Source of the DNA: a virus
Length of the DNA: 64,000 nucleotides
IMG/VR virus record: IMGVR_UViG_3300009163_003337
Location: 18,395 to 82,394 of that record
Strand: one strand, 5' to 3'
Below are positions 4,112-63,876 of this stretch, piece after piece. Within the stretch, counting starts at the first letter, position 1, and every line of letters begins with the position of its first letter. The position numbers and the translations under genes were made by a program. Below the pieces are notes generated by a model that saw only the letters and a program-made list of their open reading frames with translations, did not search any database and was not told the DNA's origin.

Positions 4112-4147
4112 TATAAATATTTATGCATTGGCATAAATATATTTATG
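4112..4147. promoter_or_regulatory. palindromic divergent late promoter pair
   Basis: ATAAATA on both strands; inverted repeat TATTTATGC-ATTG-GCATAAATA; 16-bp palindrome CATAAATATATTTATG. Confidence 0.65.
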
Positions 4148-4582
4148 ACGAAGTTTGAATCAAGATTTTTGAGAGTTTTAAGTGAGCAAGATATGGACCG
4201 TCAAGCGATGGAACAGTCACTTGATCAAGGCACGGATCCTGGTAAGTTTGATGTTAGTCCTACTAATGGCAATACAGATGCTGCGTCTCAACACCTTGCT
4301 GCTGCTGCTCAAGTTACTGCACAACAGCATGCCGAGTATGTAAAGCAAATAGAAGGTTGGTTTGCTGAAGTAAGAGAAATTTATAAGTTTCTTAATGCCT
4401 CGGATGGCGCGTCTATACTATCAGTAATATCTAATGCACCGGAAAAAACAATATTAAGCGAGGCTCTTGGTGAGAAAGCGTGTAGTCTAATAGAAAGAGC
4501 TGCAAAGGAAATTAGTGCTCTTAGCACCCTGCTAGAGTCCGCTATAAGCTCAAAGACTAAGCCTGAACTTGCAGGAGTCTAA
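4145..4582 (+). CDS. late protein with internal-protein-like N-terminus (MTKFESRFLRVLSE)
   Basis: ATG 4145 follows CATAAATA; ORF-track start 3992 overlaps opposite gene and is unlikely. Confidence 0.65.
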   Translation: MTKFESRFLRVLSEQDMDRQAMEQSLDQGTDPGKFDVSPTNGNTDAASQHLAAAAQVTAQQHAEYVKQIEGWFAEVREIYKFLNASDGASILSVISNAPEKTILSEALGEKACSLIERAAKEISALSTLLESAISSKTKPELAGV

Positions 4583-13664: not shown

Positions 13665-14753
13665 ATGAGTTCCTTTAGTAATCTACTTTCAAGGCTATCT
13701 TTTCTTAACGAGCAGTTTAAGCTAGGTAAGCCAGAGACAAAGGTGTTAAATCCAATAATTGCATCACTTAAGCATCCAACTATTTTGGATAAAAAGCCCG
13801 CGAATTCGTATTTAAAGAACTTGGTAAAAATTACTGCACTGTCGAGATTAGATCTAATAACGAATGAGCAATTTAGTATACTTAAAAGGAAAGCTGCATC
13901 TGTAACGTATATTACTAATAAGTTAAAAGAATTTGGGCTATATGATAAGTTATTTAAAGATGATGCCACAATAGATGAGGTCAATAATTTTGTTATTGAT
14001 AACGCTAGAATGCTTGTTGGTTTTGCTGCTAAGCAAATGCCTGGCGGTGGTTATGACTTACCTGATGAGGGTCTAGAGCCTGAAGAAATAGCGAGAGAGG
14101 TAGTGCAAGATTTGAGTCAAGATATAGATGACTATTCAGAGTAATTTTCAGATGCATATCAAATTGAAATTAAGTTTGCAAAGCGTACGTCAGAAATTGT
14201 TGTTACAAAGGTAGCAGAGTTGCTAAAATCTATAACATCAAACGATGATGTTATAGACATCGATGAAACAAATGGTGCTATTGATATAATTGTAGCAAAA
14301 AATACTGCATTAGATAACAGATTAGATAAAGCTGTAAAGTTAAATAATCCAACTCAAACATTTGACCAAATTGAAAGGGATATAGAGGGCTATATACACA
14401 GTAAGGCAAATATAGATGTTGTAGTTCAAGTAATGGGTCCGGACAAAGAAGCTGTATCTAATTTATCTAATAACGGTTATGAAGACGAAGAGATGTATGG
14501 TGAAGAGGAAGCTGAAGATCAAACAAATCAGGTAGGTAATTGGACAATTGAGGAGCTAGAGGGATTGGGTATAATAATGCCAAGATATACAGGTGGTAAA
14601 ACACCAATTGAAGAAAGATCAGTACTTAACTATATGTCAGAACAGAAAGTATATAATACTCCAAAGCTCGTTGTTGAATCGCAGAGCTTTAAAGACAAAT
14701 TTAAGCCAAAGACATCTAAGCAATTGGCTGAGTTAAGAAATTACGGAATGTAA
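13665..14753 (+). pseudogene. late acidic protein interrupted by one in-frame TAA (14142-14144); ORFs 13665-14144 and 14220-14753 are one frame
   Basis: both ORFs in the same frame, open on both sides of the TAA; TATAAATA at 13648-13655. Confidence 0.65.
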
Positions 14754-18293: not shown

Positions 18294-18833
18294 ATGAGAA
18301 AGCAAAGTGATTGGATTTTATTAGAGCAAGCCTATGTGCAGGTACATGAAGGTGTTGCAGGGGATATGATAATTAAAGCTGGGGCTTTTCTTGTTAAAAA
18401 ATTACAAGAAGCTGATTCAAAAATGTTTAAAGAATTACAAGAGATAGTAAGTAATAAAGATGTACAAGCTTTAGATAAAATTATGAATCAACCCCAAGTA
18501 CAGCAAGCTAAAGAGTACTTTTCACAACCAATACAAGAATCAGTTTTTGGTAATGCTGGTAAAATAATTAAAAAAATATATGGTTATTTTATGAATACTT
18601 CAAAGGGTGGAGGTGTGGCTCTGTATATTTTTGGTGCGTTAAGTTTGCTAATAGCTTTATATTTAAAAAATACGGATGATTTCGCCATACGAGCAAGTGT
18701 TGAATTTACAGATGTGCTTATTAAATTTTTTACAGCAGCGGGAATTGCTGAATTAGGTCTGGGAGGTTATAGTAGATTAGATTCTAATCATTTTGACAAC
18801 AGACCAAAAGAAAATGGAAAAGTAAAGTATTAA
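18294..18833 (+). CDS. late membrane protein with internal-protein-like N-terminus
   Basis: AATAAATA at 18281; MRKQSDWILLEQAY; two hydrophobic helices near C-terminus. Confidence 0.65.
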   Translation: MRKQSDWILLEQAYVQVHEGVAGDMIIKAGAFLVKKLQEADSKMFKELQEIVSNKDVQALDKIMNQPQVQQAKEYFSQPIQESVFGNAGKIIKKIYGYFMNTSKGGGVALYIFGALSLLIALYLKNTDDFAIRASVEFTDVLIKFFTAAGIAELGLGGYSRLDSNHFDNRPKENGKVKY

Positions 18834-21555
18834 AAGCTAAATAAATCACTTAACTCGGTCTGAACATTATCGGTTGGCTTTCTTATACGCCACTTAACCG
18901 AATCGTAAAAGCGTTCTATAGAGTTAAAAAGAATTTTTTCAAACATTAGTTCGTAGTCTATCTTAAACACTGACTTAAACTCGCTTATATATTCATTCTT
19001 AAATCCAATAGACGTAATACCATATTTATTTTGCTTTTCAACATATAAATAACGTATCTTATCACCAGAAGAAATAAGATCCGCTCTACCTCCCAGTTTT
19101 TGCATAATTAAATTATGATAGTATGCAGATTTAACGTGTATCGGCATACCTCTTACTATGCTAAACTCTCTACACAGCGGAGCGTATTTTTCATAACCCT
19201 TTATACCCATAACAAACGCAATTTCTTCCGGCTGTAGACCTTTAAATATTGCAAACGTCTCATTTAACACCTTGTTCGTTGTATTCTGAGATTGTGTTAA
19301 CATCATTGTCTCAATTATCTTCTTAGCATACGGCTTAATAGCATTAGGCATAGTCGTACGAACAACCTCTACACCAGTATACTTAAATTTATCAACCTTA
19401 ATACCTTCATCATCAAGAATATGCATAACATATCTCTTTTTCTGTAAAAATAAGGCGACATCCGCAATACACTCACGCTTGAATACAAATCTACTATCTA
19501 AAGTAAGCAATTCTTTCTTAGCCCACGTAGTAATTCCTACATTTAAATAATTCTCTAGATCATTAACAGTTTCATAAAACTTATCCGAGATAACCTCACC
19601 ATTCTTTAGAGGTACCGCTGATTTAATACATTCTAATGAAAAATAACAACTATCAGTATCAGAATACACCCAGCTTTCCTCTAATATATGTTCATCGGTT
19701 ATGTTAAAGTTTGTAGTTAAGTATTTTTGTAGTAGTTTACCTGCTTGCTTAATGACAGCTTGACCAGTTAAAGTTACTGATGATGCAATATCGTCGTCAC
19801 CAATAGGGGCTTGTTTATTTCCCATATATCCGTAACAAGAATTGCAGAGAATTTTAATAACCATCTGCTTGGTATTAAGTCGCTCTACTTCAAACTTTAA
19901 GGCACGGTATTCTGTATCAGATTCCTTTAACTTACTGAGTCTTTCCTTAACTTTAAATAATTCAGCCTTAATTACTACACGCTCACTATAGTAATGATCT
20001 AGAAACTCCGGTATAATACCTTTTTTCTTCTGAGAGAACAAAAACCCTGCTTTAGTTAATGATAATTGCTCTTTTTTAATTAATAGTTTAAGCTTATCTG
20101 TAGTAAGAGCGAAGGTTTTACCTGAAACATGATGAAGATTAATAATATCACCTGTTTTATCTATACGACCAACTTTAGTCTCCGGTGAAAGATTTAAAGC
20201 TATCATTACATTAGGGTAAAGTGAGTTTGCATCGAACGACACTACATTTTCTTTAAAACCTCTTTTCGGCTCAGCTACATAGGCACCTGGATTCTTACCC
20301 TCAGCAGCAGATCGTACAAAGGTTGATAAAATTTCACCTCGTTTTCTTGCCTTAATAGCTAATGCACCATTGATAATGGAGATTGTACCCATTGCTGATT
20401 CAAGAGTGGTTAGTCCGACATAGGCCAACATTCTTAGGAGAAATATATATTGCAGTTTTTTCTCTAGTTTGATTAGTAGATTGACGTCTTAATGTTATAT
20501 TTGACGAATAGATCCCAATTTACATCAGCAAGAGTAATTATGTTAAGATCACCGTAGTCAGTCTTATGCTCACCTAGCTCTATTTCTGCTATTTCGTTAA
20601 GTTTATATGATTCACGAAGATTTAAACAAAATCGCTTGTATATATCAAGATAATCAATACAGGAGATACCACTTATGTAGTATCTTTTAACTTCACGACC
20701 GAATTTACCACGTATAAGTCTAAAATATACATTACCTACTGGTGAAAGTCTATTTACATGCTCTTGACCGAGTATTTTTTCGGTTCTATTAATAATATAA
20801 GGGAAGTCAAAACCCTCACAATGCCAACCACTTAGTATATCCGGATAGTCAGACTCAATATACTCAAGAAATTTAAGAAGTAGTGCCTTTTCATTCCTAC
20901 AGTGATGATAAATAACATTATCTTCTGTACAGGTATAAGGCGCTAACCCAAATGTATGGAACTTACAGGAGAAGTTATCATAACATGTAATAATGTTAAT
21001 TGTATGGTTTGCTTCTTCAGGATTAGGAAAGTTATTATACTTACGCTTGGTAATATATACAGAATTTTGTATTTTTACCCATATCTCCTTTTTTTCATCC
21101 CAAACCGTATGACTCTTACTAAATTTTGACAGCTCTCCTACAGTCGTAGTTGTCTCGATGTCATTTTGCTGAATTTTTACCTTATGGTTAGAGTCATAAC
21201 TAAGCGGATCATGCGTTTCTATATCTAAAAAGACTGTCTTTAGTGGATATTGCGAAAATTCAATTGTTTCATTCTCTCTCCAAAAAGTTTCAAGAAGAAA
21301 CTGCTGAGCTGTAGGCAAGTTTTCAAATAAGCGCTTATTGCCAGAGTCAGCTATAAACTTAGTTCGATCATATTGCGTATTAAAAACACGCTTTTTAAGT
21401 TTGGTTCCAAAGATAGAGGTCTTATCACCAGTAGGTGACTCTAGATAAAGAAATGGATTAAAAGAGATATCACTGGATATACGACCTCCATTTGTATCCC
21501 AGGTTAATAGCTTAACAGATTGAGTCTTGCTATTATATATTGCGTTACGGTACAC
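18830..21555 (-). CDS. gp43: family B DNA polymerase (T4 gp43-like); one gene broken by a 1-nt deletion near 20490
   Basis: ExoI DIET, ExoII GW..GFDFPY, ExoIII YNI[x]D across the break; SFDANSLYP, KILCNSCYG, YSDTDS, KKRY. Confidence 0.93.
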
Positions 21556-28062: not shown

Positions 28063-28087
28063 ATTATCATTATAAATATAATTATCT

Positions 28088-28342
28088 ATGAAATCAACTG
28101 TAACTTTTAAAGAATATTTTGAGATTTATGTTGAAGAAATGACGGTCGGTGGTGTTATGGGTGGAAGTACAGGAGGATTCAGTCCTAGTAATCCAACTAG
28201 CTCTGACTTTTATGCACCAGGTGATGCTCGTATAGCCACACCTGATCAATATATATGTACGAGAGCAGGAGCTATAAAACGCAATAAAAAAAGAGCTAAG
28301 AAAAGAGCTAAGAGAAAAACTAAGCATAATATTAAAAAATAA
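28088..28342 (+). CDS. small late protein with basic tail (putative internal DNA-binding protein)
   Basis: TATAAATA 28071-28078; TFKEYFEIYVEE; DFYAPGDARI; KRAKKRAKRK. Confidence 0.7.
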   Translation: MKSTVTFKEYFEIYVEEMTVGGVMGGSTGGFSPSNPTSSDFYAPGDARIATPDQYICTRAGAIKRNKKRAKKRAKRKTKHNIKK

Positions 28343-28770
28343 TGAACTTAGGTCACTGGATTACCTCATTAGATACTACCGACGATGTTATACCGTACGG
28401 ATTTATATATAAGATTACATGTTTAATTAATTCTAGATCATATATCGGTAAAAAACAGTGTAAAACTATATTAAAACGTAGACCACTTAAAGGCAAACGT
28501 AATAAACGTCATGAAGAGCGTGAGACCGACTGGAAAATATACACTTCTTCATCGAGAGAACTTAATGAAGATATAGTGACATACGGTATGGAAAAATTTG
28601 TCTTTGAAATATTGCGTTTTTGTAATTCAAAATTTGAAATGTCATACTTTGAAGCTAAACTTCAATTTGAAGAGGAGGTCCTCTTAAGAGATGACTTTTA
28701 TAATGGCATTATTAACTTACGAATTGGTAGACCGAAAAACGCAAATGACTATAGAACACAGGATACCTAG
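28342..28770 (+). CDS. GIY-YIG family endonuclease
   Basis: GFIYKIT..SYIGKK, WKIYTSSS, FYNGII. Confidence 0.85.
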   Translation: MNLGHWITSLDTTDDVIPYGFIYKITCLINSRSYIGKKQCKTILKRRPLKGKRNKRHEERETDWKIYTSSSRELNEDIVTYGMEKFVFEILRFCNSKFEMSYFEAKLQFEEEVLLRDDFYNGIINLRIGRPKNANDYRTQDT

Positions 28771-29269
28771 GTATGAACTTAAATTATTAAATTTTGATTT
28801 CATTCTTAAAGAGACTTTTAGCAAATTTAATAGTGACATAACCCTATATGGTATTAGTAACAATTTCGCAAAGAAGGATACTCAAAAATTTTTCGTAAAT
28901 GCACTAATTATTACTATTTGTGAGCGGATGAAGACAGGTAAAATAGCCTTATATATTAACAGTGACACATTATATTTAAATAATAATGAAAGAGATATAA
29001 TTCTTAATATTTCCCTTAAAACTATTAGAAAATTACCTTTTCAATTTATAATTAGTAATATACCAGTTGATTTTTTCGTTGAAGAGATACATAATAATGT
29101 TGTTGAGTCGGTGGTGATGCTCGAAACGCAACTGAATTACACTCGTAATTATGATACTCTTGAATATTCACTTAGAGATCTAGTTAAATTCCTTAAGACT
29201 CACAAGTTAAGCTATCTTTATGAAGTGTATTTTAAGCAATTAACCAATAAAATCCTGATAGTTAAATAA
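28745..29269 (+). CDS. hypothetical protein
   Basis: ORF, likely start MTIEHRIP. Confidence 0.6.
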   Translation: MTIEHRIPRYELKLLNFDFILKETFSKFNSDITLYGISNNFAKKDTQKFFVNALIITICERMKTGKIALYINSDTLYLNNNERDIILNISLKTIRKLPFQFIISNIPVDFFVEEIHNNVVESVVMLETQLNYTRNYDTLEYSLRDLVKFLKTHKLSYLYEVYFKQLTNKILIVK

Positions 29270-29277
29270 ATATAAAC

Positions 29278-29661
29278 ATGAGTAAATTTCTTAATTTAGT
29301 GGAGAGTAATCTACCTCCACAAGATCTTGATAAGAATAGAGAGGTTTTACGAGACTTACAGCAGCTTTTAAGTAAATCAGGCATAACGTCTTCACTAAAA
29401 ACTTTTAAGGATGTTGTAGTTATTACCGTAAATAATAAGGTTGTTGAGTTAGAGCTTAAACATATCTCACAATCTACAGAAGAAGAGGCAGAAGATCAGA
29501 CGGCTAAAATGATAGCAGCAGTTGCTGGTTTACCAGACCAAGGTATGAAAGGATTCATTCCGGGTACGACGTCAAACAAGCTTGCACAAGCCAAAAAAAC
29601 AATGGCTGATGCAGTCGGAATAATGGCTAATAAATTTAGAGATGCAGCAAACGCGAAATAA
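29278..29661 (+). CDS. late protein with internal-protein-like N-terminus (MSKFLNLVES)
   Basis: AATAAATA upstream; F..L.E tag. Confidence 0.7.
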   Translation: MSKFLNLVESNLPPQDLDKNREVLRDLQQLLSKSGITSSLKTFKDVVVITVNNKVVELELKHISQSTEEEAEDQTAKMIAAVAGLPDQGMKGFIPGTTSNKLAQAKKTMADAVGIMANKFRDAANAK

Positions 29662-29664
29662 ATA

Positions 29665-30420
29665 ATGAATAATTTAAATAAATTATTTGAAAAGTATTAT
29701 AGAATACTTAACGAACAAGAGCCGCAAGAAGGAGATATACCTACAGCAACAGGTGATCAACAACAAGCAGTTGATACACCTGTTGATCAAGATAATCAAC
29801 AACCACCGGAGCCAGAAATTATAGTCACTCCAGGTGAGAAATATATTATAAATATTTTAATAAGTGCTTTTTGCTTTGACAAATCGAAGCTTACCAAGCC
29901 GCAATTAATAGAGGTTCGTAATTTAACTAGTAAAATTAATGACCTAAAGGGAAGTTCAATCGCTACCTCAATAGATCTAATTAAGCAGATTTTAAAATTA
30001 CAACCAAATACCGTTGTTAGGGAATTTAAAACACTTAATTTAATTAAACGTTATATACTAATAATTGATCAATCACTTGATGCTACAGATCTCAATAACT
30101 CACAACCTACTAATACAGTAGATCAACCTCTTAAAAATTTTAATAATAGACCTGAAGTGGGGGAATTGGAATTATCTAGACTTTGGCCGCAATATAGTGA
30201 TTTAATAATATCAGCAATAGAACACATACCGACAGTTAGCGATTTTTTAATATTAAGGCCAAGTATTAATAAGTTTATTGAAGAAGATCCAATAGAATTA
30301 GTTACTGTAATTAAAGACCTTCTAACATTCCGTAGCAGTGAGGTAACCGATAAACGAGACAAGTTGCCTGACCCGGATATTGATTCTCCTACCTCAGATC
30401 TGCCTTTAGATTCTCTATAA
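29665..30420 (+). CDS. late protein with internal-protein-like N-terminus and acidic linker
   Basis: AATAAATA upstream; LFEKYYRILNEQ; Q/D/P-rich linker. Confidence 0.7.
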   Translation: MNNLNKLFEKYYRILNEQEPQEGDIPTATGDQQQAVDTPVDQDNQQPPEPEIIVTPGEKYIINILISAFCFDKSKLTKPQLIEVRNLTSKINDLKGSSIATSIDLIKQILKLQPNTVVREFKTLNLIKRYILIIDQSLDATDLNNSQPTNTVDQPLKNFNNRPEVGELELSRLWPQYSDLIISAIEHIPTVSDFLILRPSINKFIEEDPIELVTVIKDLLTFRSSEVTDKRDKLPDPDIDSPTSDLPLDSL

Positions 30421-30421
30421 T

Positions 30422-30509
30422 ATGCCTAATCGTAAATTAACAACTATTTATAGCAGCTTTAGACACATCGCAAACAGATATTGAAAACGAAATAGCTAAG
30501 TATGATTAA
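30422..30509 (+). pseudogene. gene remnant: N-terminal MPNRKLTTIYS fused out of frame to C-terminal AALDTSQTDIENEIAKYD*
   Basis: both peptides resemble the termini of ORF 31855-32964; stop overlaps next ATG by 8 nt. Confidence 0.5.
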
Positions 30510-31305
30510 TTTTAAAGAATATTACCGTGTTATAGTCGAAGGAGGAAATATATTTACTGTAGATCCTACAGTACGTATTCAATTAGCATATATTAAACCA
30601 ACAGTTGATATGCTTTCAAATATTGTTAATATTAAAAATCTTGATAACTGTTTGTTGGGTAGTACTGGAAAAAGAGAGTCCTCAGGTGATTTAGATATAG
30701 CAATTGACAGTAAAAAATATACTAAAGATGAAATAACAAACTTATTAATTAAGTGGTGTGAAGATCCAGAGCGTAATTTTGTACCTAAATATTATATTGC
30801 TAGAGCCGGGGATAGTAAAAGTTGGCTCCGAGCATCTGGAGATCAGCTACACTTTAGAACACCTATAGTAGGTTTAGATGGTCAGTTTGTACAAACAGAC
30901 TTCATGTTTGTACAAGATATTAAATGGGCTAAATTTGTATTAGCTAATGATGAAGCAAGTCCTTATAACGGTAAACACAGAGGTGTAATATTATCAACTC
31001 TTGCTAAGAATATTAACTGTAAGTGGAGTGGTTTAAAGAGTATAACAAATAGAACATCAGGAGCGGTTGTTGAGGGTTCAAATCCAGATAGAGTTGCTCA
31101 AATACTACTAGGCGATAAGAATGCTAAGAAAGGTAACCTTAAGACAATTCCAAACATCCTATCATTTCTATATAAAAAATATAATGATGTAGAGGTAGTT
31201 TTAAACATATTAGTTGCCGCGCGACAGATAATACTTAAAGACGGTTTAGATATAGCTACATTACTACCACAGCAAAAATTAAAAGCAAAGGTAGAAAATG
31301 ATTAA
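30502..31305 (+). CDS. Pol-beta superfamily nucleotidyltransferase
   Basis: LLGSTGK..SSGDLDIAID plus downstream QTDFM third Asp. Confidence 0.8.
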   Translation: MINFKEYYRVIVEGGNIFTVDPTVRIQLAYIKPTVDMLSNIVNIKNLDNCLLGSTGKRESSGDLDIAIDSKKYTKDEITNLLIKWCEDPERNFVPKYYIARAGDSKSWLRASGDQLHFRTPIVGLDGQFVQTDFMFVQDIKWAKFVLANDEASPYNGKHRGVILSTLAKNINCKWSGLKSITNRTSGAVVEGSNPDRVAQILLGDKNAKKGNLKTIPNILSFLYKKYNDVEVVLNILVAARQIILKDGLDIATLLPQQKLKAKVEND

Positions 31306-31840
31306 CTTTAAACAATTTTTCGAACAGCTACAAAATGTAGAGACAATAGCTGTCTTACCAGGAGGTTTTAAACCACCTACAAAAGGACATTTTTTAGCAT
31401 TAGAAAATATTTTACAAGATGCTAATAAGGGAGTTATTTTTATAGGTAAGAGTCCTCGTGACGGTATAGATCAAGAAATGTCATATCAAATATGGTCTAT
31501 TTACAAACCCTATCTTTCAAAGCCTGTTGAAATTGTTAAGAGTGATGTTACACCTGTTAAATCTACCTATGATCTTGCTACTGAACATACTAACGTTAAT
31601 ATAATTGTTGGAGCAGGCTCAAAAGATAACGATATAATGAGATATAATTATTTTATTAAAAATACGGAGAAATATCCTCATGTTGTTGTGACTCCTATTA
31701 ACATTCAAGGAGGTAATATTAGTGGAACTAAAGTTAGAGATATGATACTTTCGAAAGATCCTAATGTAGTTAATTATTTTGTGCCAGACAATATTAAGGA
31801 AACAGATAGAGAAAGAATTAAGAATATACTTAATATATAA
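31298..31840 (+). CDS. HxGH nucleotidyltransferase (cytidylyltransferase/NMNAT/PPAT-like)
   Basis: PGGFKPPTKGH and ISGTKVR motifs. Confidence 0.85.
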   Translation: MINFKQFFEQLQNVETIAVLPGGFKPPTKGHFLALENILQDANKGVIFIGKSPRDGIDQEMSYQIWSIYKPYLSKPVEIVKSDVTPVKSTYDLATEHTNVNIIVGAGSKDNDIMRYNYFIKNTEKYPHVVVTPINIQGGNISGTKVRDMILSKDPNVVNYFVPDNIKETDRERIKNILNI

Positions 31841-31854
31841 ATATTATATTAGCA

Positions 31855-32964
31855 ATGCATAATAAACAACTATCAAATATTTATAGTAAAGGAGTCCTTG
31901 GTAATTTCATCAAGAAACCTCTATATCTACGCGTTTTAGGTGAAGCAGACGAAAAAATTAAAAAGTATAGTAAGCGTGAATTAGCGATAATTATTGCAGC
32001 TAAAGATCCAAATTTAACTGTAGGTTCTTGCAGTAAAGATACACGGGTTCAGCCAAAAGGTCCATATGATGTAACTAAATTTATTCAGACATTAGAAGAT
32101 GCTAAACTATCAATTGTTAAGATAGTTAAGCCGGGTGAGGATGGATCTACTTCTAGTCTACTTCGTACATATATTGTACAAGACGAAAACGAAAATGAAT
32201 ATCCCGTTGTATTAGGCAAGGGTAAAGGTTTTGGTACAAGGGATGAAAATTTTGTTCTAGATAATTTAAAGGAACAAATAAAATCTCTATTAATACAAGA
32301 TGATACTGATTACATTACTATTGAGATAAATGGTGAGAGTCAAAAAGTTGACGGTATTGAAACTACCCCAAAAACCCCAAAGAGTGATTTTAATTTTACT
32401 TACAAAGGTAAACCAGTATTATTTATCTCACATAAAGCAGGTAAAAAAGCCTCTGACTACCAGCAATACGGAGGAATGACATGTAAAGCAGGTAAGGATA
32501 TATGTCAACATGAAGAGATAGAGGATTTTGTTGATCAGATTAAAGAGAGATATGCAGACGGTATGCCTCCTGGTAAGTCTTTATGGAAGAGGATTAGAGA
32601 TCCTAAGCTTAAAAAACTTTCTCTTTTTGGTCCGGATTACGGTGAAAAATACGGAGAAGATAATGTTAATGGCTTGTATCAAGGTAATATAAAAATTGTT
32701 CCAGCTGATAATGATACATATAAACTTGAAGCACATCATATTATATACAATGACGATATACCAGATGGAGAATACGAGCCAGTATTATACGCAAGATATA
32801 GTGGATCAAGAGGCGGTAATCACGGAATTAAAGATTTAAGAACTGCAATTTTACCAATAGCAAAAATATCTAAAAATACACAAGATGTTAAATTAAACAA
32901 GGCTAATATTAATGCATTAGATAATACCGAGTCTAAAATAGAGGACTTATTGTTAAATAACTAG
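31855..32964 (+). CDS. PD-(D/E)xK restriction-endonuclease-like protein
   Basis: TPKSDF....FISHK...YQQYGG; TATAAATA 31836-31843. Confidence 0.7.
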   Translation: MHNKQLSNIYSKGVLGNFIKKPLYLRVLGEADEKIKKYSKRELAIIIAAKDPNLTVGSCSKDTRVQPKGPYDVTKFIQTLEDAKLSIVKIVKPGEDGSTSSLLRTYIVQDENENEYPVVLGKGKGFGTRDENFVLDNLKEQIKSLLIQDDTDYITIEINGESQKVDGIETTPKTPKSDFNFTYKGKPVLFISHKAGKKASDYQQYGGMTCKAGKDICQHEEIEDFVDQIKERYADGMPPGKSLWKRIRDPKLKKLSLFGPDYGEKYGEDNVNGLYQGNIKIVPADNDTYKLEAHHIIYNDDIPDGEYEPVLYARYSGSRGGNHGIKDLRTAILPIAKISKNTQDVKLNKANINALDNTESKIEDLLLNN

Positions 32965-32982
32965 AATAGCATAAATAGTATT

Positions 32983-33474
32983 ATGCTAAAACGTAGAGAT
33001 CAAAATTTGTTATCAGAAGCTTACGGTCAAGTAGGTGGCTGTGATCTAAGTGCTCCGAGCTTAATGGGTAAGCCTGTTATGATAACAATGGATATGCCAG
33101 GCACAGAGGTATATAATAGTCATGATCATAACCATGATCACGAGCACAATAGTGAAGAGCAGGATCCAAGCGAAATAGAAATGGCATTATCTGAGCTACA
33201 TAAGCTTGCAGAATATGCGCCAAAGTTAAAGGAGATCGTTGAGGATCTACCTTCTCTCGAAGGTTGGGTATCCTCGAAAATAACAAAAGCATCGGACTAT
33301 ATTTCATCTGTTTATCACTGGCTTGAGTACCAGCAACACGAAGGTTGCGGAGAACATAGTCAAGAAATGTTCAATACAGGTAGTGAAGACTCAGGCTGTG
33401 AATATGCGAAGCAAGGGTGTGAGTGTGGAGGATGTAGTGATTGTGGAGGATGTAGTGATTGTACCTATGATTAA
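32983..33474 (+). CDS. late protein with His-rich tract, helical domain and Cys-rich tail
   Basis: CATAAATA upstream; DQNLLSEAY; HDHNHDHEH; LEGWVSSKITKASDYI; CECGGCSDCGGCSDC. Confidence 0.75.
   Translation: MLKRRDQNLLSEAYGQVGGCDLSAPSLMGKPVMITMDMPGTEVYNSHDHNHDHEHNSEEQDPSEIEMALSELHKLAEYAPKLKEIVEDLPSLEGWVSSKITKASDYISSVYHWLEYQQHEGCGEHSQEMFNTGSEDSGCEYAKQGCECGGCSDCGGCSDCTYD
33424..33459 (+). repeat. perfect 18-bp tandem duplication TGTGGAGGATGTAGTGAT
   Basis: two exact copies encoding CGGCSD. Confidence 0.9.
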
Positions 33475-33901
33475 TTTTAAAAATTTTTTCGAAAAGACGG
33501 TTATAGGTCTCATTGAGGTAATGAGTATCGAGGGTATCGGGTCTATTAAAGTTAAAATAGATTCAGGTAACGGAGCCTATAATGTAATACACGGTGATGA
33601 TCTCACTATACAAGGTTCAAAAGTTTCTTTTACTACTATTAATGGAAAACGACTAATAAAGGATGTAGAGGATACTATAAGCATTAATGTAGGAGCTGGT
33701 CATACAGAAGAACGCCCAGTGGTTAAATTTAGAGTTAAATTTGCCGGTACAGAATTTGAAAATATACCTTTTAGTATAGGTAACAGAGAAGCTAATGAAT
33801 ATAAAGTCCTTGTTGGTAAGGATTTTATTAAGCAGCTTGATGCTTTAATTGATGTAAATTCAAACAATATTGCGAATAATCAAATTGAAGTTAAATATTA
33901 A
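33467..33901 (+). CDS. retropepsin-like aspartic protease (RimK-associated type)
   Basis: VKIDSGNG, EERPVV, FSIGNR...VLVGKDF; true start MINFK at 33467. Confidence 0.8.
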   Translation: MINFKNFFEKTVIGLIEVMSIEGIGSIKVKIDSGNGAYNVIHGDDLTIQGSKVSFTTINGKRLIKDVEDTISINVGAGHTEERPVVKFRVKFAGTEFENIPFSIGNREANEYKVLVGKDFIKQLDALIDVNSNNIANNQIEVKY

Positions 33902-34450: not shown

Positions 34451-35119
34451 TTACTTTGTAGAAGCCATATCGATAAACTTATAAAGCTCGGTACGAGTCT
34501 TTTCATCGGTAAGAAAATCACCTGTAAGTTTAGATGTAATCATAAAACAACCATCATGTCTTACTCCTCTATTACACGCGCATGTATGTTGAGCTTTAAG
34601 AACTACAGCCACACCTAGATTACCTTCACAAGCTATATTGACAGCATCAGCAATTTGTTTTGTTAACATTTCTTGGATTTGAGGTCTACGAGCATAAAAC
34701 TCAACAATACGATTGAGCTTACTAAGACCGATAACCTTACCATCTAGACTCGGAATATATGCAAGATGAGCAACACCAGTAAAGGCTAAATGATGATGTG
34801 AACAAAGAGACTTTACAGGAATATTACACTGTGCAACAATCCCATCATAACCATCATTAGGAAATGCAGTTACATCAGGTTGACTATCATAACAACCGGT
34901 CGCAATATCATTAACGAATGCCTTAGCGACACGCATAGGGGTATTATCTGAATTAGGATCATTCCGCCAATCAAACCCAAGTGCATCCATATATTTTTCA
35001 TATGCTTTTGCTGCACGCTTAATAATAGCTTGCTTTTCTCTTTCTGTTCTTGGAGCGTTACCATTAGCATATGGTAATTTAACTAGGTCACCAATCTCAA
35101 CGTGTTCTAAATCTTCCAT
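34451..35119 (-). CDS. folE: GTP cyclohydrolase I
   Basis: [36 protein letters not shown]. Confidence 0.96.
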
Positions 35120-35168: not shown

Positions 35169-35789
35169 ATGCGTAAGCTTTCACAAAGAGAATTATTAGA
35201 AGAAAAATGGGGCGACTATTTTAGAGGTTTTGGTAAAGCTGCTGCAAGAAAAGCTCTTGCAGCAACTAAGGGTATAATTAGAACTATTTCACCTACAGGC
35301 GCTAAAATTCTAAGTTCTGCTGCTGATGCTGTTGGCGCAACAGCTGCTAATATTCTTGGATCAAGTCCAAAAAACGCGTTAGAAACGTTTTTAAAAAGAC
35401 CAGAAAACCAACACTTATTTAAGACATATGAAATAATTAAAGAAACAAATTTACCAAACGGTGATAGATCCATAGAACTCACAGGTGAATTTATTCATCC
35501 ACAAACATTTGCTATATCAAATATTACAACAAATATTGTATTTCGTCGTGTTGATAGTGGAGGAATTAGTCCAGAGAAATGGAAGTGTATAAGTAAATTT
35601 AATAACCAAACCGGGCAATTTAGTATAGAATCAACCCCACCAGCTACAGCACCTGCTACGACAGCGACACCTACGACTGCTACGCCACCACCAGCTACGA
35701 CAGCAGCTAACGGAAGACAACTAAGCCAGACTCCAAGTGCAATAAGAAGTAGAAATGCTAGAGCAGCAGCAAGAGCAGCAGCACCTTAG
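35169..35789 (+). CDS. late protein with internal-protein-like N-terminus and A/T/P-rich tail
   Basis: TATAAATA 35156-35163; MRKLSQRELLEE. Confidence 0.7.
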   Translation: MRKLSQRELLEEKWGDYFRGFGKAAARKALAATKGIIRTISPTGAKILSSAADAVGATAANILGSSPKNALETFLKRPENQHLFKTYEIIKETNLPNGDRSIELTGEFIHPQTFAISNITTNIVFRRVDSGGISPEKWKCISKFNNQTGQFSIESTPPATAPATTATPTTATPPPATTAANGRQLSQTPSAIRSRNARAAARAAAP

Positions 35790-35841: not shown

Positions 35842-36501
35842 ATGAAGAAAGTATTTCAATCAGCAAAAGTAATCGAGTTGGGTTCATGTGCATTTAGACA
35901 ATGGCGCGCCACTAGTCATTGTAGATTTCTACACGGATATCAGCTTAAAGCAAAATTGTGGTTTGGTTGTTCTGAGTTAGACAATAAAGGTTGGGTAGTT
36001 GACTTCGGTAGTCTTAAAGCTCTTAAAGATGAACTTAAGAGTATCTATGATCATACTACTACCGTTGCTCTTGATGATCCAGAACTTGAAACTTTTAAAA
36101 AGCTACACGAAAGCGGTATAATTCAGCTATATATTGTTAAGAAGGGAGTCGGCGTTGAACGCACGGCAGAATATGTTTTTGAAATTGCTCAAAAACACAT
36201 TGAATCTATCACAAATGGTCGCTGCTGGGTAGATAAGGTAGAAGTCTTTGAACATGATGAAAACTCTGCTATTTTTAGTAGTTTTGATCATATACCTGCT
36301 CATAAATCAGGATTTACAGGAGTAGTCAATACCGGTGTAATAGATGAAGCAGTAACACAAACAATTAACACATCTAATATAGCCCCGGTTAGCTTTACAT
36401 GTGCTCCACCAGTTGGATTTACTGGCGCAGCACATGTAGGCTCAGGTAGCGTATCAAGCGGAATGGGTAATCCGTTCGCTGGTACTAGTTGGGGTGCTTA
36501 A
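35842..36501 (+). CDS. queD: QueD-like 6-carboxytetrahydropterin synthase with C-terminal extension
   Basis: CAFRQW..SHC..LHGY, WVVDFG.LK, DHT, E.TA, VEVFEH..NSA. Confidence 0.88.
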   Translation: MKKVFQSAKVIELGSCAFRQWRATSHCRFLHGYQLKAKLWFGCSELDNKGWVVDFGSLKALKDELKSIYDHTTTVALDDPELETFKKLHESGIIQLYIVKKGVGVERTAEYVFEIAQKHIESITNGRCWVDKVEVFEHDENSAIFSSFDHIPAHKSGFTGVVNTGVIDEAVTQTINTSNIAPVSFTCAPPVGFTGAAHVGSGSVSSGMGNPFAGTSWGA

Positions 36502-38160: not shown

Positions 38161-38922
38161 ATGAGTATCGATTGTGATAAAGAAACGATGTTTTTGTCGA
38201 ATGATTTCGTGTTTTTTACTATAGAAGGAGAGGGAGCGTTTGTTGGAAAGCCTTCGGTCTTTATGAGATTAGCAAGCTGCAACTTAACGTGTTCAGCATT
38301 TATTTCTGAAGACTCTCCACATGGCTGTGATTCATATGTTTCATGGTCGGTAAAGAATAAGATGACGTTTAATGAAATCTTTAAGCTATTTGAAGATGGA
38401 GGACATATAGCTCATTTAAAAGCTGGTGCTATCTTAAAATTAACTGGTGGTGAACCGCTTGTTTCAGGTAAGCAGCTCATTAAGTTTATCGAGGCGCTGG
38501 TTGCAAAGTATGATTTCTTACCGCAGATAGACTTTGAGACTAACGCTACTATTATGCCGGATGAACGCTGGGTCACAGAATTTAAAGCTACCTTTACAAC
38601 ATCACCTAAATTAACAACAAACGGTGATCCCGAAGAGAAAACATACAAGCCCGCAGTATTAAAGTGGCATCGTGAACACGGCTCTGGCTTTAAGTTTGTT
38701 ATAACTCGATCTGAAGATATAGATGAAATTTGGCGTAAATATGTTGATGATTATAACGGTATTAATGTACCGCTAAAACGTATATGGTTTATGCCTTGCT
38801 GTGGATCTAGAAAAGAACACGTAGAAAATGCACCTGCAGTAGTTGAGTATGCTAAGTCTATGCATGTTAACTTTAGTCCAAGGCTACATCTATTAATCTG
38901 GGATAAAGCATTATCGGTATAA
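38161..38922 (+). CDS. queE: 7-carboxy-7-deazaguanine synthase QueE (radical SAM)
   Basis: TIEGEG..GKPSVFMRL..CNLTC...CDS, TGGEP, ETN, SPK, PRLH. Confidence 0.93.
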   Translation: MSIDCDKETMFLSNDFVFFTIEGEGAFVGKPSVFMRLASCNLTCSAFISEDSPHGCDSYVSWSVKNKMTFNEIFKLFEDGGHIAHLKAGAILKLTGGEPLVSGKQLIKFIEALVAKYDFLPQIDFETNATIMPDERWVTEFKATFTTSPKLTTNGDPEEKTYKPAVLKWHREHGSGFKFVITRSEDIDEIWRKYVDDYNGINVPLKRIWFMPCCGSRKEHVENAPAVVEYAKSMHVNFSPRLHLLIWDKALSV

Positions 38923-41077: not shown

Positions 41078-41941
41078 ATGGGTGACGAGAAATATAAAGT
41101 AGGTGTAGGCATTATAACGTGTAATCGGCCTGAATATTTGTATAACTTGTTAAATAGTATTAGACCATCGTGTGCTGTTGATGAGCTTGTAATAGTTAAC
41201 GATGGTGGAAATATTCCAGGACCTAGTTTTACATCTACCTGTCCTGTTACCTATCTCAGGAACGTAACTAATTTAGGAGTAGGCAAATCAAAAAACAGAG
41301 CTATTCAGCGTCTTTTAGATGAAAAGTGTGATTATATCTTCATTATCGAAGATGATACAATTGTGCTAGATCTTGAAATATTCGACAAATATATTGAAGC
41401 AAGTAAAGAAACAGGTATACAGCACTTTAATTTTGGACCTGGTACACCATTTAATAGAAAGCAAACGATTACTAATTATGATCTACATAATAGACATTTG
41501 TTAGATAATGAATCTAAACCTAATCCTAAGGTTACTATTGAATATCCTAATGATGTTAAGATTGATCTATATGAACACGTAGCAGGAGTATTTAGCTTTT
41601 TTACAAAAGAGATACTACAAAGTGTAGGCTTACACGATGATAGATTTTATAATGCGTGGGAACATGTTGACCATACATTTAGGATAATAAAGGCTGAAGG
41701 TCATCCACCGTTTTGGTGGTTTGCTGATATACACGATAGTGTAAAATATTTGAGTATACCATCCGATTCTATTGATAGGAGCACGACATCGAACAATCAA
41801 GAAGAATGGTTTAAAAATATAAACGCTGGAAGAGAGATATATCATAATATACACGGCTTTTATCCAAATATGTGTCCGCATACTAGTAAAGAAGATGTTA
41901 TTAAAACTCTTAAAAGTATAAAATCTAAATGGACGATCTAA
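41078..41941 (+). CDS. GT2 glycosyltransferase
   Basis: GIITCNRP, VIVNDG, GVGKSKN, IIEDD, WEHVDH. Confidence 0.85.
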   Translation: MGDEKYKVGVGIITCNRPEYLYNLLNSIRPSCAVDELVIVNDGGNIPGPSFTSTCPVTYLRNVTNLGVGKSKNRAIQRLLDEKCDYIFIIEDDTIVLDLEIFDKYIEASKETGIQHFNFGPGTPFNRKQTITNYDLHNRHLLDNESKPNPKVTIEYPNDVKIDLYEHVAGVFSFFTKEILQSVGLHDDRFYNAWEHVDHTFRIIKAEGHPPFWWFADIHDSVKYLSIPSDSIDRSTTSNNQEEWFKNINAGREIYHNIHGFYPNMCPHTSKEDVIKTLKSIKSKWTI

Positions 41942-42678
41942 CTTTAATTACCTGTTCTTATAATACACCTGATATAACACTAACAATGTTAAAGTCATGG
42001 ATGTATATTCATAATAGAACGCAGCGACTTATTATTGTTGACAACTCAACAAATAGTGATACACGAGGCTTGCTATACGATCACAAAGTTCCATACACAA
42101 CACACCCAGGAATGAGTCACGGTGATGGGGTTAATGAGGCTTTAAAGTTATGTAAAACAAAATATGCTTTACTTGTTGACACTGATGTTATATTCTTAAA
42201 AGATCACAGTTCTATTTTTCAGCAATTCAAGGATATGGATTTGTCTATTATGGGTAAGGTAGAAGGTGACCGAGGCGGTAAATCTATCTATAATAGAGTC
42301 AATCCATGGCATTGCTTTATTGATGTAGAAAAAATTAAACAACATAATATTACTTTCTTTGACGAGGAAAGAATGAAAGACAGTTTTAAGACTGATAAGA
42401 TATATGATATTGGATCTACATTTTTAGAAGATATTAAAAAGCATAACCTTAAAATTGGTAATGTAGATCTTTCAACTAGTTACTATATACACTTAGAGGG
42501 TATGAGTTGGTATAAAAATAAATTTGATGGTACTAAAGAAGATACAGGTATTGACTTTGGCGGTACACACAACAACCCTGCCTATGTAAGTGCTTATGAA
42601 CAAAAACACCAAGCTTTTCAAAACATAAAACAGCAATACGAGGGTGTTAAAATCTCAGATAAATTTATATATGAGTGA
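41929..42678 (+). CDS. GT2-like glycosyltransferase
   Basis: IIVDNS, HGDGVN, LVDTDV, YDIGS. Confidence 0.8.
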   Translation: MDDLTLITCSYNTPDITLTMLKSWMYIHNRTQRLIIVDNSTNSDTRGLLYDHKVPYTTHPGMSHGDGVNEALKLCKTKYALLVDTDVIFLKDHSSIFQQFKDMDLSIMGKVEGDRGGKSIYNRVNPWHCFIDVEKIKQHNITFFDEERMKDSFKTDKIYDIGSTFLEDIKKHNLKIGNVDLSTSYYIHLEGMSWYKNKFDGTKEDTGIDFGGTHNNPAYVSAYEQKHQAFQNIKQQYEGVKISDKFIYE

Positions 42679-43474
42679 TATAACTTTTATTATACATCTA
42701 CGTAAGGATACTGAGGAACGTGCTAAAAATGTAGATATAGTTATTGAATACTATAAAAATATACTACCTACTTGTAAATTTATAGTTATTGAAGACGATA
42801 AAATACAAAATTTTAAATACTTAAAAGTTGATACAAGGATTCAATATATTCATTTTTATAATGAAGGTCAACATAACAAATGTAAAGGTTACAATATTGG
42901 GTTAAATAGTTGTGAAACTACTATTATGTGTTTTCTTGATATTGACTGTATTGTAAGTAAGCAGAATATTGAAAAAGCCATTAACACGCTTGAGAATACA
43001 GACGGTTTATGTATAGGTTATAATGGTACTGCTATATATTTTAACTATACAGTTAAAGATAGGATAACTGATGCTACAGAATCTTTATATGACTTTTTAG
43101 AAACATTTGTTGATACTGTTAATATACGTACTGGTTATGCAAATGAGTTTTATCATGTTGCTAACACAAGAGCTGTAGGTGGTATGTTATTAGGCTACAA
43201 CCATATTTTTAAAAATATTGGAGGGTTTAATCCTAACTTTAAAGGCTGGGGATACGAAGATAATGAAATAATAGTTCGTGCAAGAAAATTAAAAATACCT
43301 ATCTACTCTATCAACACCCCCAAACCATTTTTATTTCACCTACCGCACATTAGTGATGAAAATAAAAATAAAGAAGATACACATGCGTCATATAGACTTA
43401 ATGAGCAAGAGTATTTAAAAATAACTAGATTTAGTTTAGAGCAGACGTTAGAATATATAAAATCTTGGAAATAA
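42671..43474 (+). CDS. GT2/GT7-like glycosyltransferase
   Basis: FLDIDC, GGFNPNFKGWGYED, FHLPH. Confidence 0.85.
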   Translation: MSDITFIIHLRKDTEERAKNVDIVIEYYKNILPTCKFIVIEDDKIQNFKYLKVDTRIQYIHFYNEGQHNKCKGYNIGLNSCETTIMCFLDIDCIVSKQNIEKAINTLENTDGLCIGYNGTAIYFNYTVKDRITDATESLYDFLETFVDTVNIRTGYANEFYHVANTRAVGGMLLGYNHIFKNIGGFNPNFKGWGYEDNEIIVRARKLKIPIYSINTPKPFLFHLPHISDENKNKEDTHASYRLNEQEYLKITRFSLEQTLEYIKSWK

Positions 43475-43475
43475 T

Positions 43476-44893: not shown

Positions 44894-44894
44894 T

Positions 44895-45689: not shown

Positions 45690-45690
45690 T

Positions 45691-50831: not shown

Positions 50832-50839
50832 TAGAGACC

Positions 50840-51133
50840 ATGAAAATTATCTATGTTGATATAGACGAAACAATCTGCACAAGCCCGCCTAGCAGAAAAT
50901 ATACTGAAGCAATTCCAATAAAGGAAAATATTGAAAAAATTAATAAGCTATACGATAGAGGTAATACTATTGTTTACTGGACATCAAGAGGTAGTCGCAA
51001 ACAAATAGACTGGTACGAATTAACAAAAACACAGCTAGAGGAATGGGGTGCAAAATACAATGAATTGAGAGTAGATAAGCCATATTACGATCGCTTTATA
51101 GATGACAAAACACTAAGAATAGAAGAAGTATGA
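50840..51133 (+). CDS. minimal HAD phosphatase (capsule-biosynthesis type)
   Basis: DIDET, WTSRG, KP...FIDDK. Confidence 0.85.
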   Translation: MKIIYVDIDETICTSPPSRKYTEAIPIKENIEKINKLYDRGNTIVYWTSRGSRKQIDWYELTKTQLEEWGAKYNELRVDKPYYDRFIDDKTLRIEEV

Positions 51134-52547: not shown

Positions 52548-52554
52548 TAATAAA

Positions 52555-53199: not shown

Positions 53200-53259
53200 G
53201 TATTTACTTATACTACTTTTAGTTGATTTATACCCTAATTTAGATTATTATTGTAAAAG

Positions 53260-63210: not shown

Positions 63211-63876
63211 ATGGCATTAAAGCTTAACCTATTAGTAGAGAGACCGGCATTAGGAGATCAGTTTGAATATGTTGTAGAGGAGTCAAATAGAAATGCACCT
63301 TCAACTTTATTTATAAAGGGTCCATACATGATGGCAGAAGATGTTAATAAGAATAAGCGATTATATCCTATTGATGAACTACGAAAGGAAGTGAGTCGGT
63401 ATAATGAAGAGATGATTATACCGGGTAGAGCAATGGGTGAGCTTAATCACCCTACTACAGCTGATGTCGACCTCGAGCGCGCTTGTCATATAGTTACTGA
63501 GTTGTATGAAGATAATAATATCTTTTACGGTAAGTCTAAAGTACTCTCTACACCTTGCGGGTTAATCGTAAGATCACTTGTTAATGATGGTGTTAAGGTA
63601 GGCATGTCGTCAAGAGCTCTAGGTACTCTAGAGGAGGGATCATCGCATAATATTGTAAGAAACCTTAAGCTGGTTGCTGTTGATTGTGTAGCAGACCCAT
63701 CTTTTCCTAAGGCATTTGTTAATGGTATACTTGAATCCAAACAGTGGGTTGTTGCTACTAATGGTAAATACGAAGAGGTTTATGAACATTTTGAAAGATC
63801 AATTTCCAAACTCCCAAAAAGAAATGTGGAGATTTTCTTGAGAGAACAAATCCTAAAATTTATACAATCTATATAA
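63211..63876 (+). CDS. gp21: prohead protease gp21
   Basis: NKNKRLYP, GELNHP, GMSSRALG, D.VADPS. Confidence 0.96.
   Translation: MALKLNLLVERPALGDQFEYVVEESNRNAPSTLFIKGPYMMAEDVNKNKRLYPIDELRKEVSRYNEEMIIPGRAMGELNHPTTADVDLERACHIVTELYEDNNIFYGKSKVLSTPCGLIVRSLVNDGVKVGMSSRALGTLEEGSSHNIVRNLKLVAVDCVADPSFPKAFVNGILESKQWVVATNGKYEEVYEHFERSISKLPKRNVEIFLREQILKFIQSI

Follow-up and report, generated by a model that had tools for sequence, protein, structure and literature searches.

The stretch analysed here (the window) comprises 64,000 nucleotides, the last 64 kb of the 82,394-bp viral contig IMGVR_UViG_3300009163_003337, whose source is a distant T4-type myovirus. Beside the uvsY gene of this phage we found an island of ten plus-strand genes (28088 to 33901, window coordinates) in which three proteins with unrelated bodies, a family-X-DNA-polymerase-like protein, a PPAT/NMNAT-like adenylyltransferase and a retropepsin-like aspartic protease, begin with the same short peptide tag. 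The tag matches the capsid-targeting sequence (CTS) of the T4 internal proteins at its key positions, is conserved in related islands and lies outside the folded domains of the enzymes. Late-promoter motifs stand in front of genes of the island, and a gene for a T4-type prohead protease is present in the window. It is likely that the tagged proteins are targeted to the capsid and that their tags are trimmed there by the protease.

A T4-type tag at the start of three unrelated proteins

A preliminary description of this DNA had listed the ten open reading frames (ORFs) of the island and their N-termini, which we recovered as described, and had reported near-identical DNA at the starts of three unrelated enzymes. 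Our count agreed: the 15-nt sequence ATGATTAAYTTTAAA occurs in three exact copies in the contig, all on the plus strand and all at gene starts (30502, 31298 and 33467), whereas about 0.0085 copies would be expected from base composition. The first 8 nt at 31298 and 33467, ATGATTAA, contain the TAA stop of the upstream gene, forming a start/stop overlap. The peptide shared by the three proteins is M-I-N-F-K-x-(F/Y)-(F/Y), followed by hydrophobic-x-Glu, and reads MINFKEYYRVIVE on 30502, MINFKQFFE on 31298 and MINFKNFFE on 33467. The putative cleavage ends are I-V-E at residues 11-13 of 30502, immediately before the conserved domain, and F-F-E at residues 7-9 of 31298 and 33467, where Phe replaces the Leu or Ile of the T4 L/I-x-E motif.

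For the enrichment of the tag we used a criterion taken from T4 and not from this genome, namely aromatic residues at positions 4 and 7. The pair was found in 30502, 31298 and 33467 (Phe4 with Tyr or Phe7) and was lacking in the remaining seven island genes, giving 3/10 in the island versus 2/84 among the other genes (Fisher p 0.008); among all Met positions the pair has a background frequency of 1.3%. The only other two genes with both aromatics begin MIDYSKY and MLNFTVY, and none of the replication and sugar-metabolism genes of the contig starts like the tag. The tag is real and non-random. The preliminary description had, however, counted seven similar N-terminal tags. Three of them share one motif, while the other four (MKSTVTFKEYF, MSKFLNLVES, MNNLNKLFEKYY and MLKRRDQNLLSEAY) are only leader-like; their motif is different, and they end in hydrophobic-x-Glu.

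The T4 sequences compared begin MKTYQEFIAE (ipII and ipIII) and MKTFKEF (ipI). According to the T4 literature, the N-terminal 10 residues of IPIII are enough for incorporation, mutagenesis of IPIII assigns targeting mainly to residues 4 and 7 and processing to residues 8 and 10, and L/I-x-E is the motif after which gp21 cuts (PMC9026906). The T-even internal proteins are described there as diverse defence proteins with the CTS as their sole common feature (PMC3012670), and the use of the CTS by T4 relatives for packing varied proteins is proposed in both reviews (PMC9026906, PMC3012670). The earlier likening of the tag to the CTS agrees with experimentally defined determinants, residues 4 and 7. 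As in T4 IPI, IPII and IPIII, the peptide here is N-terminal, about 10 residues long, aromatic at positions 4 and 7 and ended by hydrophobic-x-Glu; as in T4, it is the only feature common to otherwise unrelated, presumably late proteins, and an S77 protease is encoded in the same genome. This gp21-type protease, also noted in the preliminary description, matches PF03420 with 102 bits against a cut-off of 27 (Table 1) and carries L-V-E at residues 8-10 of its own N-terminus. We presume it to be the enzyme that removes the tag.

There are also differences from T4. CTS cargo in T4 is small, basic and inhibitor-type, whereas here it comprises enzymes of 144-567 residues whose folds can be recognised. 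The tagged genes lie in one syntenic locus beside uvsY, while the T4 ip genes are at two separate places. The Glu is mostly at position 9 after Phe-Phe, and at least two further leader classes occur alongside. The T4 system is experimentally established, and the system described here is known from sequence alone. Enzymes that are carried in the head, are cleaved behind Glu by a gp21-type protease and reach the host together with the DNA are described for T4 Alt and for the ejection proteins of phiKZ-like and SPN3US-like phages in one review (PMC9026906), and by analogy the same may hold here. T4 Alt is a packaged, gp21-processed ADP-ribosyltransferase, and the enzyme types here differ from it; the giant phages use the cleavage motif S/A-x-E and lack a defined tag that is short and portable, and nothing like their virion RNA polymerase or inner body is evident in this phage. 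In the literature searched, the CTS was tied to marine phages ('cyanophage') in nothing but a T4 review, DUF6267 was not mentioned, and 'cytitidyltransferase' combined with virion or mass spectrometry gave nothing relevant.

The island had been described as lying under repeated late promoters, and this was upheld by position and not by overall abundance. Across the whole window TATAAATA was found 21 times with 21.9 expected, which is not above chance. The motif [TAC]ATAAATA, in contrast, lies within 45 nt upstream of 17 of the 94 called genes, compared with 1.5% of random 45-nt windows, and 16 of these 17 motifs are 8-19 nt from the ATG, the exception being the gp32 gene (39 nt). It precedes five of the ten island genes (28088, 29278, 29665, 31855 and 32983), and the same motif precedes the portal gene, the gp21 gene and genes of the tail-fibre region.

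Conservation of the tag and of the glutamate at the domain boundary

A search with UvsY yielded 79 viral-contig loci, of which about 40 reach more than 2.5 kb upstream, and the same island stands beside uvsY in most of these. From 69 related islands we collected 455 distinct ORFs and clustered them by their bodies, with the tag set aside. The aromatic-4/7 start was present in 57 of the 455, and 56 of the 57 fell within six body-unrelated clusters: the adenylyltransferase (15 tagged of 18), the retropepsin-like (17 of 20) and the polymerase-like proteins (13 of 13), DUF6267 (4 of 8, or 8 of 8 with a looser pattern), a second adenylyltransferase family (4 of 4) and a 166-aa family (3 of 3). The set of cargo differs between relatives. 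Their tags are often MKTFKEYFEE, MKTFKQFFEK or MKSFKKFFE, nearer still to T4 ipI, and the MKTFKE... form is identical to ipI over the first six residues.

Among 51 distinct tag DNAs, Phe4 was kept in all 51, Lys or Arg5 in 47, an aromatic residue at position 8 in 47 and Glu9 in 33, with synonymous variation (TTT/TTC, AAA/AAG, GAA/GAG) and with positions 2, 3 and 6 varying freely. The combination of conserved residues with synonymous codon variation indicates selection on the peptide and not on the DNA. Across the aligned adenylyltransferases M1 and F4 never vary, as is also true of the catalytic Gly-His, and K5 is nearly invariant, while the linker that follows the tag differs by as many as 33 residues.

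The tag behaves as an addition to proteins that exist without it. The preliminary description had asked whether cellular homologues of the enzymes lack the tag, and the cellular or solved homologues compared do lack it, as do the domain model and some other phage proteins. Solved PPAT chains start at profile position 14 of the phage adenylyltransferase family, and the Pfam DUF6267 model starts at residue 20-23 of the tagged proteins. The DUF6267 homologue of HTVC008M has no tag; that of S-CAM9 has none at its annotated start, although the tblastn match extends upstream and the start may be miscalled. Pelagiphage Mosig has the retropepsin-like domain, untagged, at the C-terminal end of a RimK-like protein, and residue 4 of the solved retropepsin-like homologue 9g58_A aligns with residue 9 of 33467 in a weak first segment (5.9 bits). 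The best 120 matches of the retropepsin-like homologue search were all close phage relatives, so that cellular N-termini were not visible there. The AlphaFold2 (AF2) models agree: in 30502 (pLDDT 88) residues 1-13 fall below 50 as a detached helix, and in 31855 (pLDDT 85) the same applies to residues 1-4 and 13-32.

The Glu at the end of the leader is itself conserved at the domain boundary. Among 24 of the 63 polymerase-like homologues found, hydrophobic-x-Glu stands immediately before the conserved GGNVFK element in all but two (P0023, MGGNIFK, and P0049, MSNNIFK), although the leaders in front of it range from 2 to about 130 residues; some are T4-CTS-like (MRAKEFITE). Conservation of E13 in this family is 90% or more. 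Among members of the endonuclease-like family both CTS-type starts and long leaders occur, and the leader-ending Glu is nearly invariant in both. A further case is locus L051 (2539-4169, minus strand), where a polymerase-ligase fusion is split in two and the ligase half has its own MIRFNHFFYLRE start, the tag sitting directly before the homologous sequence. We read L051 as a gene fission accompanied by tag gain. On the further-reaching reading of a re-addressed enzyme kit (see below), each polypeptide would need its own tag, as this fission suggests, and the packaged proteome of uncultured phages might then be readable from sequence. The boundary Glu and the fission with tag gain are hard to explain without an address-and-cut function.

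We also considered whether the shared start could be an AT-rich, unstructured gene-start cassette, with the ATGATTAA overlap serving translational coupling, that spread by recombination and whose peptide has no targeting role. The upstream stop within ATGATTAA at 31298 and 33467 fits such a cassette, and the three tagged genes have no promoter motif of their own, lying downstream within motif-headed operons and relying on upstream translation and transcription. Moreover, one tag shares a 31-nt stretch, at 90%, with the tag that a non-homologous gene carries in locus L011, and the locus does recombine, as seen from a deleted ligase half and a moved nuclease gene (see below). Conservation nevertheless tracks the amino acids and not the DNA: tag positions 2-3 alternate between Ile-Asn and Lys-Thr, and the switch to Lys-Thr destroys the ATGATTAA overlap. 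The conserved positions are those that target T4 IPIII by mutagenesis, the boundary Glu is kept across leader types, and the start is absent from the replication and sugar-metabolism genes of the contig. We regard this explanation as unlikely.

Enzyme cargo and its proposed packaging

Four enzyme assignments had been made in the preliminary description, and three of them, the Pol-beta nucleotidyltransferase, the HxGH nucleotidyltransferase and the retropepsin, were supported and could be made more precise. The fold of 30502 matches Pol beta palm-thumb structures (VIA Z 9.7, 9.6 and 9.4), Thermus PolX (9.0) and African swine fever virus (ASFV) Pol X (8.5, with 150 of 176 residues aligned), compared with Z values of at most 7.0 over about 90 residues for other nucleotidyltransferases. 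Foldseek likewise returned Pol beta and lambda (E 1.6e-4). G56, S61-G62-D63, D65 and D133 are invariant in the family and correspond to GS...D-x-D with the third carboxylate. Like ASFV Pol X and Pol beta, 30502 thus combines palm and thumb with the carboxylates D63, D65 and D133; unlike family X polymerases, it has an identity of only 11-16% to them and neither an 8-kDa nor a fingers domain, and it matched no polymerase family in Pfam. We know of no counterpart of the GGNVFK element in family X polymerases. On the model, 30502 is a minimal family-X-polymerase-like protein.

In close relatives of 30502 a ligase-like partner is fused to the polymerase-like part, and ASFV also pairs Pol X with a ligase. 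The 567-aa relatives have a ligase-like C-terminal half with a KxDG-type motif and a weak RNA_ligase match. Compared with the L006 island (4157-5096), 30502 shows an in-frame loss of about 940 bp, the ligase-like half, and retains the final 18 nt and its overlap with the gene that follows; the endonuclease-like gene has been relocated, standing upstream of the polymerase-like gene in L006 and downstream of the adenylyltransferase gene here. A tblastn search for the ligase-like half elsewhere in the incomplete 82-kb contig gave no credible match (best E 0.21).

The family profile of 31298 matched the PPAT structure 3nd5 (E 2e-6), and G30-H31 of its TKGH motif are invariant in the family; the PF01467 score was 16 bits against a cut-off of 21, while relative L061 reached 26.5 bits. 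The assignment of 33467 rests on PF05618 (E 3e-8, 34.1 bits versus a cut-off of 27) with its DSG motif, on a KIDSGNG stretch conserved in relatives and on a match to the solved PF05618 member 9g58_A (E 7e-5). This is the most conserved gene of the island, with 895 database clusters and at least 67% identity among the top 120.

The fourth assignment, a tagged PD-(D/E)xK nuclease, stood in part. In 31855 residues ~30-127 were modelled as a small nucleotidyltransferase-like domain and residues 127-337 as a restriction-endonuclease-like fold, the latter matching HhaI (VIA Z 7.0), MspI (6.8) and HinP1I (6.1) over 150-163 residues, where the safe level of the tool is 8. The best restriction-endonuclease match in Foldseek was HinP1I (E 0.018), and E131, P175-K176, D178 and I191-S-H-K194 are invariant in the family, with E30 nearly so. 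The model lends moderate support to the PD-(D/E)xK assignment, whereas the MINFK tag is lacking and a leader of ~30 residues ending in VLGE takes its place.

Natural fusions join these enzymes: adenylyltransferase with polymerase-like protein (P0032), polymerase-like protein with DUF6267 (P0025 and P0048) and adenylyltransferase with nuclease-like protein (P0082). The adenylyltransferase, polymerase-like, DUF6267 and endonuclease-like enzymes therefore probably act together on nucleic acid. Homologous enzymes (endonuclease-like, DUF6267, 'cytitidyltransferase') stand in the same order as here in cyanomyophages, pelagiphage HTVC008M and Stenotrophomonas phage DLP_6, where they are mostly untagged; in phiM12 only the endonuclease-like homologue was seen. 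As exceptions, the DLP_6 DUF6267 protein (L088 4177-5412) begins MMKFTQFLAE, and two small proteins of S-CAM9 near the cassette (L083 10414-10593 and 10825-11169) begin MKTF(K/R)QF. An Atlas search returned virus-only clusters without names. In Pseudomonas phage PA5oct the distant 30502 homologue EST35_0231 is annotated 'structural protein, ESI-MS/MS' and lies among other virion proteins.

The fusions, the cassette among replication genes in cyanophages and HTVC008M, and the prediction of the tag as a free helix would also fit a peptide that acts as an assembly or localisation signal for a site other than the head, such as an amphipathic helix for a cytoplasmic enzyme complex, the membrane or a replication factory. 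Such a signal would leave several observations unexplained: the near-invariant boundary Glu and the near-identity to the T4 capsid-targeting peptide, the late promoters common to head genes, the unfused retropepsin-like and 166-aa cargo, the neighbouring gp23 mimic with its polybasic tail, and the virion annotation of the PA5oct homologue. We give it little probability.

Our favoured explanation is capsid targeting, and the island beside uvsY would then hold late-expressed genes whose products become part of the phage head. The carriers of the T4-type tag (consensus M-[K/I]-x-F-K-x-[Y/F]-[F/Y]-E) would be the polymerase-like, PPAT/NMNAT-like and retropepsin-like proteins and, in relatives, also the DUF6267 ligase-like protein, the second adenylyltransferase family and the 166-aa protein. 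The tag would bind the scaffolding core during prohead assembly and the cargo would be enclosed; the S77 protease would then cut after the tag-ending Glu, releasing the enzyme within the head. The endonuclease-like protein and the gp23-copying 28088 protein, which carry other leaders, may use the same or a related entry route. We infer core binding, cleavage and presence in the virion by analogy, packaging being suggested by the T4 system together with the one mass-spectrometry annotation in the distant PA5oct homologue. More tentatively, the enzymes might be ejected into the host with the DNA and serve there in the processing of DNA ends or gaps or in an attack on host DNA; the anti-defence role put forward in the preliminary description would likewise be conjecture.

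Several points weigh against this proposal. The endonuclease-like/DUF6267/adenylyltransferase cassette lies, mostly untagged, near replication genes in cyanomyophages (S-CAM9), in HTVC008M and partly in DLP_6, which implies that the enzymes need no packaging to work. The PA5oct homologue is remote, with ~30% identity across 44% of the query, and the ligase-like and endonuclease-like genes next to it carry no virion annotation. The DNA identity of the tags is partly trivial because the first 8 nt of two of them double as the stop/start overlap. Two of the three tags have Phe three before Glu, and Glu at position 9 instead of 10, so that cleavage there is a guess; in 33467, given the 9g58_A alignment, a cut at this Glu would trim the first strand of the domain. 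Hydrophobic-x-Glu within residues 6-32 is common by itself, occurring in 30 of 82 other genes; the comparison with 12 of 12 leader genes is post hoc, as the 12 were chosen partly by their leaders, and shows only how common the motif is. Finally, the phage is known from metagenomes alone, and the contig stops just past gp21, with its own scaffold and capsid genes beyond the end. In the scaffold protein of the relative G001, inspection by eye, which is not a statistical test, revealed no CTS-like aromatic repeat.

Packaged proteins might also work inside the head without being injected, the protease in maturation, the polymerase and ligase in nick sealing and the basic protein in condensing DNA. 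The polybasic gp23-mimic protein looks structural, and the high conservation of the retropepsin-like gene fits a role in core assembly better than an arms-race effector. On the other hand, nucleotide-dependent enzymes would be without substrates in a filled head, and the cargo set varies between relatives, as for accessory functions. In T4, according to the reviews, CTS cargo exits with the DNA and acts in the cell, as seen for IPI* and for CTS fusions delivered into the host (PMC9026906, PMC3012670). Work confined to the head thus appears improbable.

Going further, it is conceivable, if somewhat doubtful, that a widespread T4-type marine lineage re-addressed to the capsid, by tag gain, DNA-processing enzymes which other T4-type phages produce in the cytoplasm, so that a ready-made kit enters with the genome. 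The kit would consist of an adenylyltransferase, a restriction-endonuclease-like nuclease and a minimal family-X-like polymerase that may or may not come with a ligase, here with an aspartic protease in addition. If the tag works as in T4, the capsid contents of an abundant uncultured group of marine phages would be predictable from their genomes alone, and its natural variants could be of use for T4 protein-packaging technology. Whole enzymes (polymerase-like, nuclease-like, protease) would then also be seen to shift from cytoplasmic to packaged by gaining a peptide of 9-10 residues, which would offer a testable handle on what phages deliver other than DNA. The tag principle is already known from T4, reportedly since the work of Black and colleagues; the enzyme cargo, the conserved locus and the evidence for fission with tag gain are new here.

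Operon layout, other leader genes and genomic surroundings

The features of the island, and of leader-bearing genes elsewhere in the window, are collected in Table 1. The motif at 29657..29664 would drive 29665, 30502 and 31298. Across the contig the late-promoter motifs end 0-11 nt ahead of start codons, so that late mRNAs would be leaderless or nearly so.

Table 1. Genes and promoter-like motifs of the island, with further leader genes and the prohead protease (window coordinates)
Position	Strand	Feature	Basis or remark
4145..4582	+	Late-promoter ORF outside the island, leader MTKFESRFLRVLSE	CATAAATA ends 5 nt upstream
13665..14144	+	Late-promoter ORF outside the island, leader MSSFSNLLSRLSFLNE	Promoter motif
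18294..18833	+	Late-promoter ORF outside the island, second-class leader MRKQSDWILLEQAY	Promoter motif
28071..28078	+	Late-promoter-like TATAAATA	Ends 9 nt before ATG 28088
28088..28342	+	84-aa protein	Leader ending VEE; Gly-rich gp23-like segment; polybasic tail
28342..28770	+	GIY-YIG (SegE-like) protein, no tag	Pfam PF19835, E 2.7e-27
28772..29269	+	Conserved protein	Cluster C3, 24 loci; start uncertain, longer ORF from 28691
29265..29272	+	Late-promoter-like AATAAATA	Ends 5 nt before ATG 29278
29278..29661	+	127-aa protein, leader MSKFLNLVE-S (Phe4, then L-V-E)	Cluster C2, 27 loci
29657..29664	+	Late-promoter-like AATAAATA	Abuts ATG 29665
29665..30420	+	251-aa protein, leader ending RILNE, then acidic Gln/Pro-rich stretch	Cluster C1, 32 loci
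30502..31305	+	CTS-type tag MINFKEYYRVIVE with family-X-DNA-polymerase-like palm/thumb enzyme	AF2 fold, invariant carboxylates
31298..31840	+	CTS-type tag MINFKQFFE, variable linker and HxGH (TKGH) adenylyltransferase, PPAT/NMNAT type	Profile versus PDB
31836..31843	+	Late-promoter-like TATAAATA	Ends 11 nt before ATG 31855
31855..32964	+	Two-domain protein, ~30-residue leader ending VLGE	AF2; phrog_13937, E 6e-55
32970..32977	+	Late-promoter-like CATAAATA	Ends 5 nt before ATG 32983
32983..33474	+	163-aa protein, second-class leader MLKRRDQNLLSE-AY, His-/Cys-rich C-terminal part	Cluster C5, 21 loci
33467..33901	+	CTS-type tag MINFKNFFE with retropepsin-like aspartic protease (PF05618), DSG motif	Pfam
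35169..35789	+	Late-promoter ORF outside the island, second-class leader MRKLSQRELLEE	TATAAATA ends 5 nt upstream
63211..63876	+	gp21-type prohead core serine protease (S77)	phrog_207, E 2.3e-54; PF03420 (Peptidase_S77), E 2.9e-29

The leader of the 28088 protein is amphipathic, and its Gly-rich segment copies the start of the mature major capsid protein gp23. In BLASTP it matched gp23 of the relative G001 (L091 2430-3902, minus strand) with E 5e-9 and 18 of 36 residues identical; the alignment begins at the presumed cleavage Glu of gp23 and covers the first ~35 mature residues. The three-part build is kept in the first gene of the related islands compared. By these features the protein is a candidate DNA-binding inner-head protein and may be an inner-capsid DNA anchor. 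The GIY-YIG gene, translationally coupled to 28088, occupies the same place in 51 related loci (cluster C0, 51 members). This constant position indicates a resident gene and not a fresh homing-endonuclease insertion, and the SegE-like gene looks domesticated rather than mobile. PHROGs and Pfam contained no family for the 84-, 127-, 251- and 163-aa proteins of the island.

In 18294, 32983 and 35169 the leader is of a second type, M-(R/L)-K-x-x-(D/Q)-x-x-L-L-x-E, with an aromatic residue next. We rejected 32983 and 18294 as paralogues: BLASTP gave no alignment, and at most the leader is shared. The 35169 start is an internal Met of its ORF and is probably the true start, because TATAAATA ends 5 nt upstream of it; relatives (clusters C18, C44 and C55) start at the equivalent Met. 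The 4145 protein is a candidate for further head cargo. Pfam and PHROGs gave no family for 4145, 13665 and 35169.

T4-type genes identifiable in the window include those for primase, gp41-type helicase, gp32, UvsX, a split gp43 polymerase, gp46/47, the late sigma factor gp55, UvsW, UvsY, gp3, portal, gp4 and the gp21-type prohead protease. The portal is ~30% identical to the nearest cultured phages in the phage collection searched, and the island gave no blastn match in that collection; by these comparisons the phage lacks close relatives in culture. The gp43-type DNA polymerase is split over the adjacent ORFs 18830-20431 and 20473-21555 (minus strand), which match phrog_262 positions 17-317 and 338-851. 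The gp4-like 'head closure' gene (62745-63179) has a Pfam match as well, to the TnsA-like endonuclease N-terminal domain (E 5e-17).

QueC-, FolE-, QueD- and QueE-like genes were observed at 14741-15559, 34451-35119, 35842-36501 and 38161-38922, respectively, a set that suggests 7-deazaguanine modification of the phage DNA. Such a modification could matter if a nuclease is co-packaged, as it could shield the phage DNA from that enzyme. Between the replication and head modules, positions 41078-54447 hold a 13-kb series of glycosyltransferase-, methyltransferase- and sugar-nucleotide-type genes.

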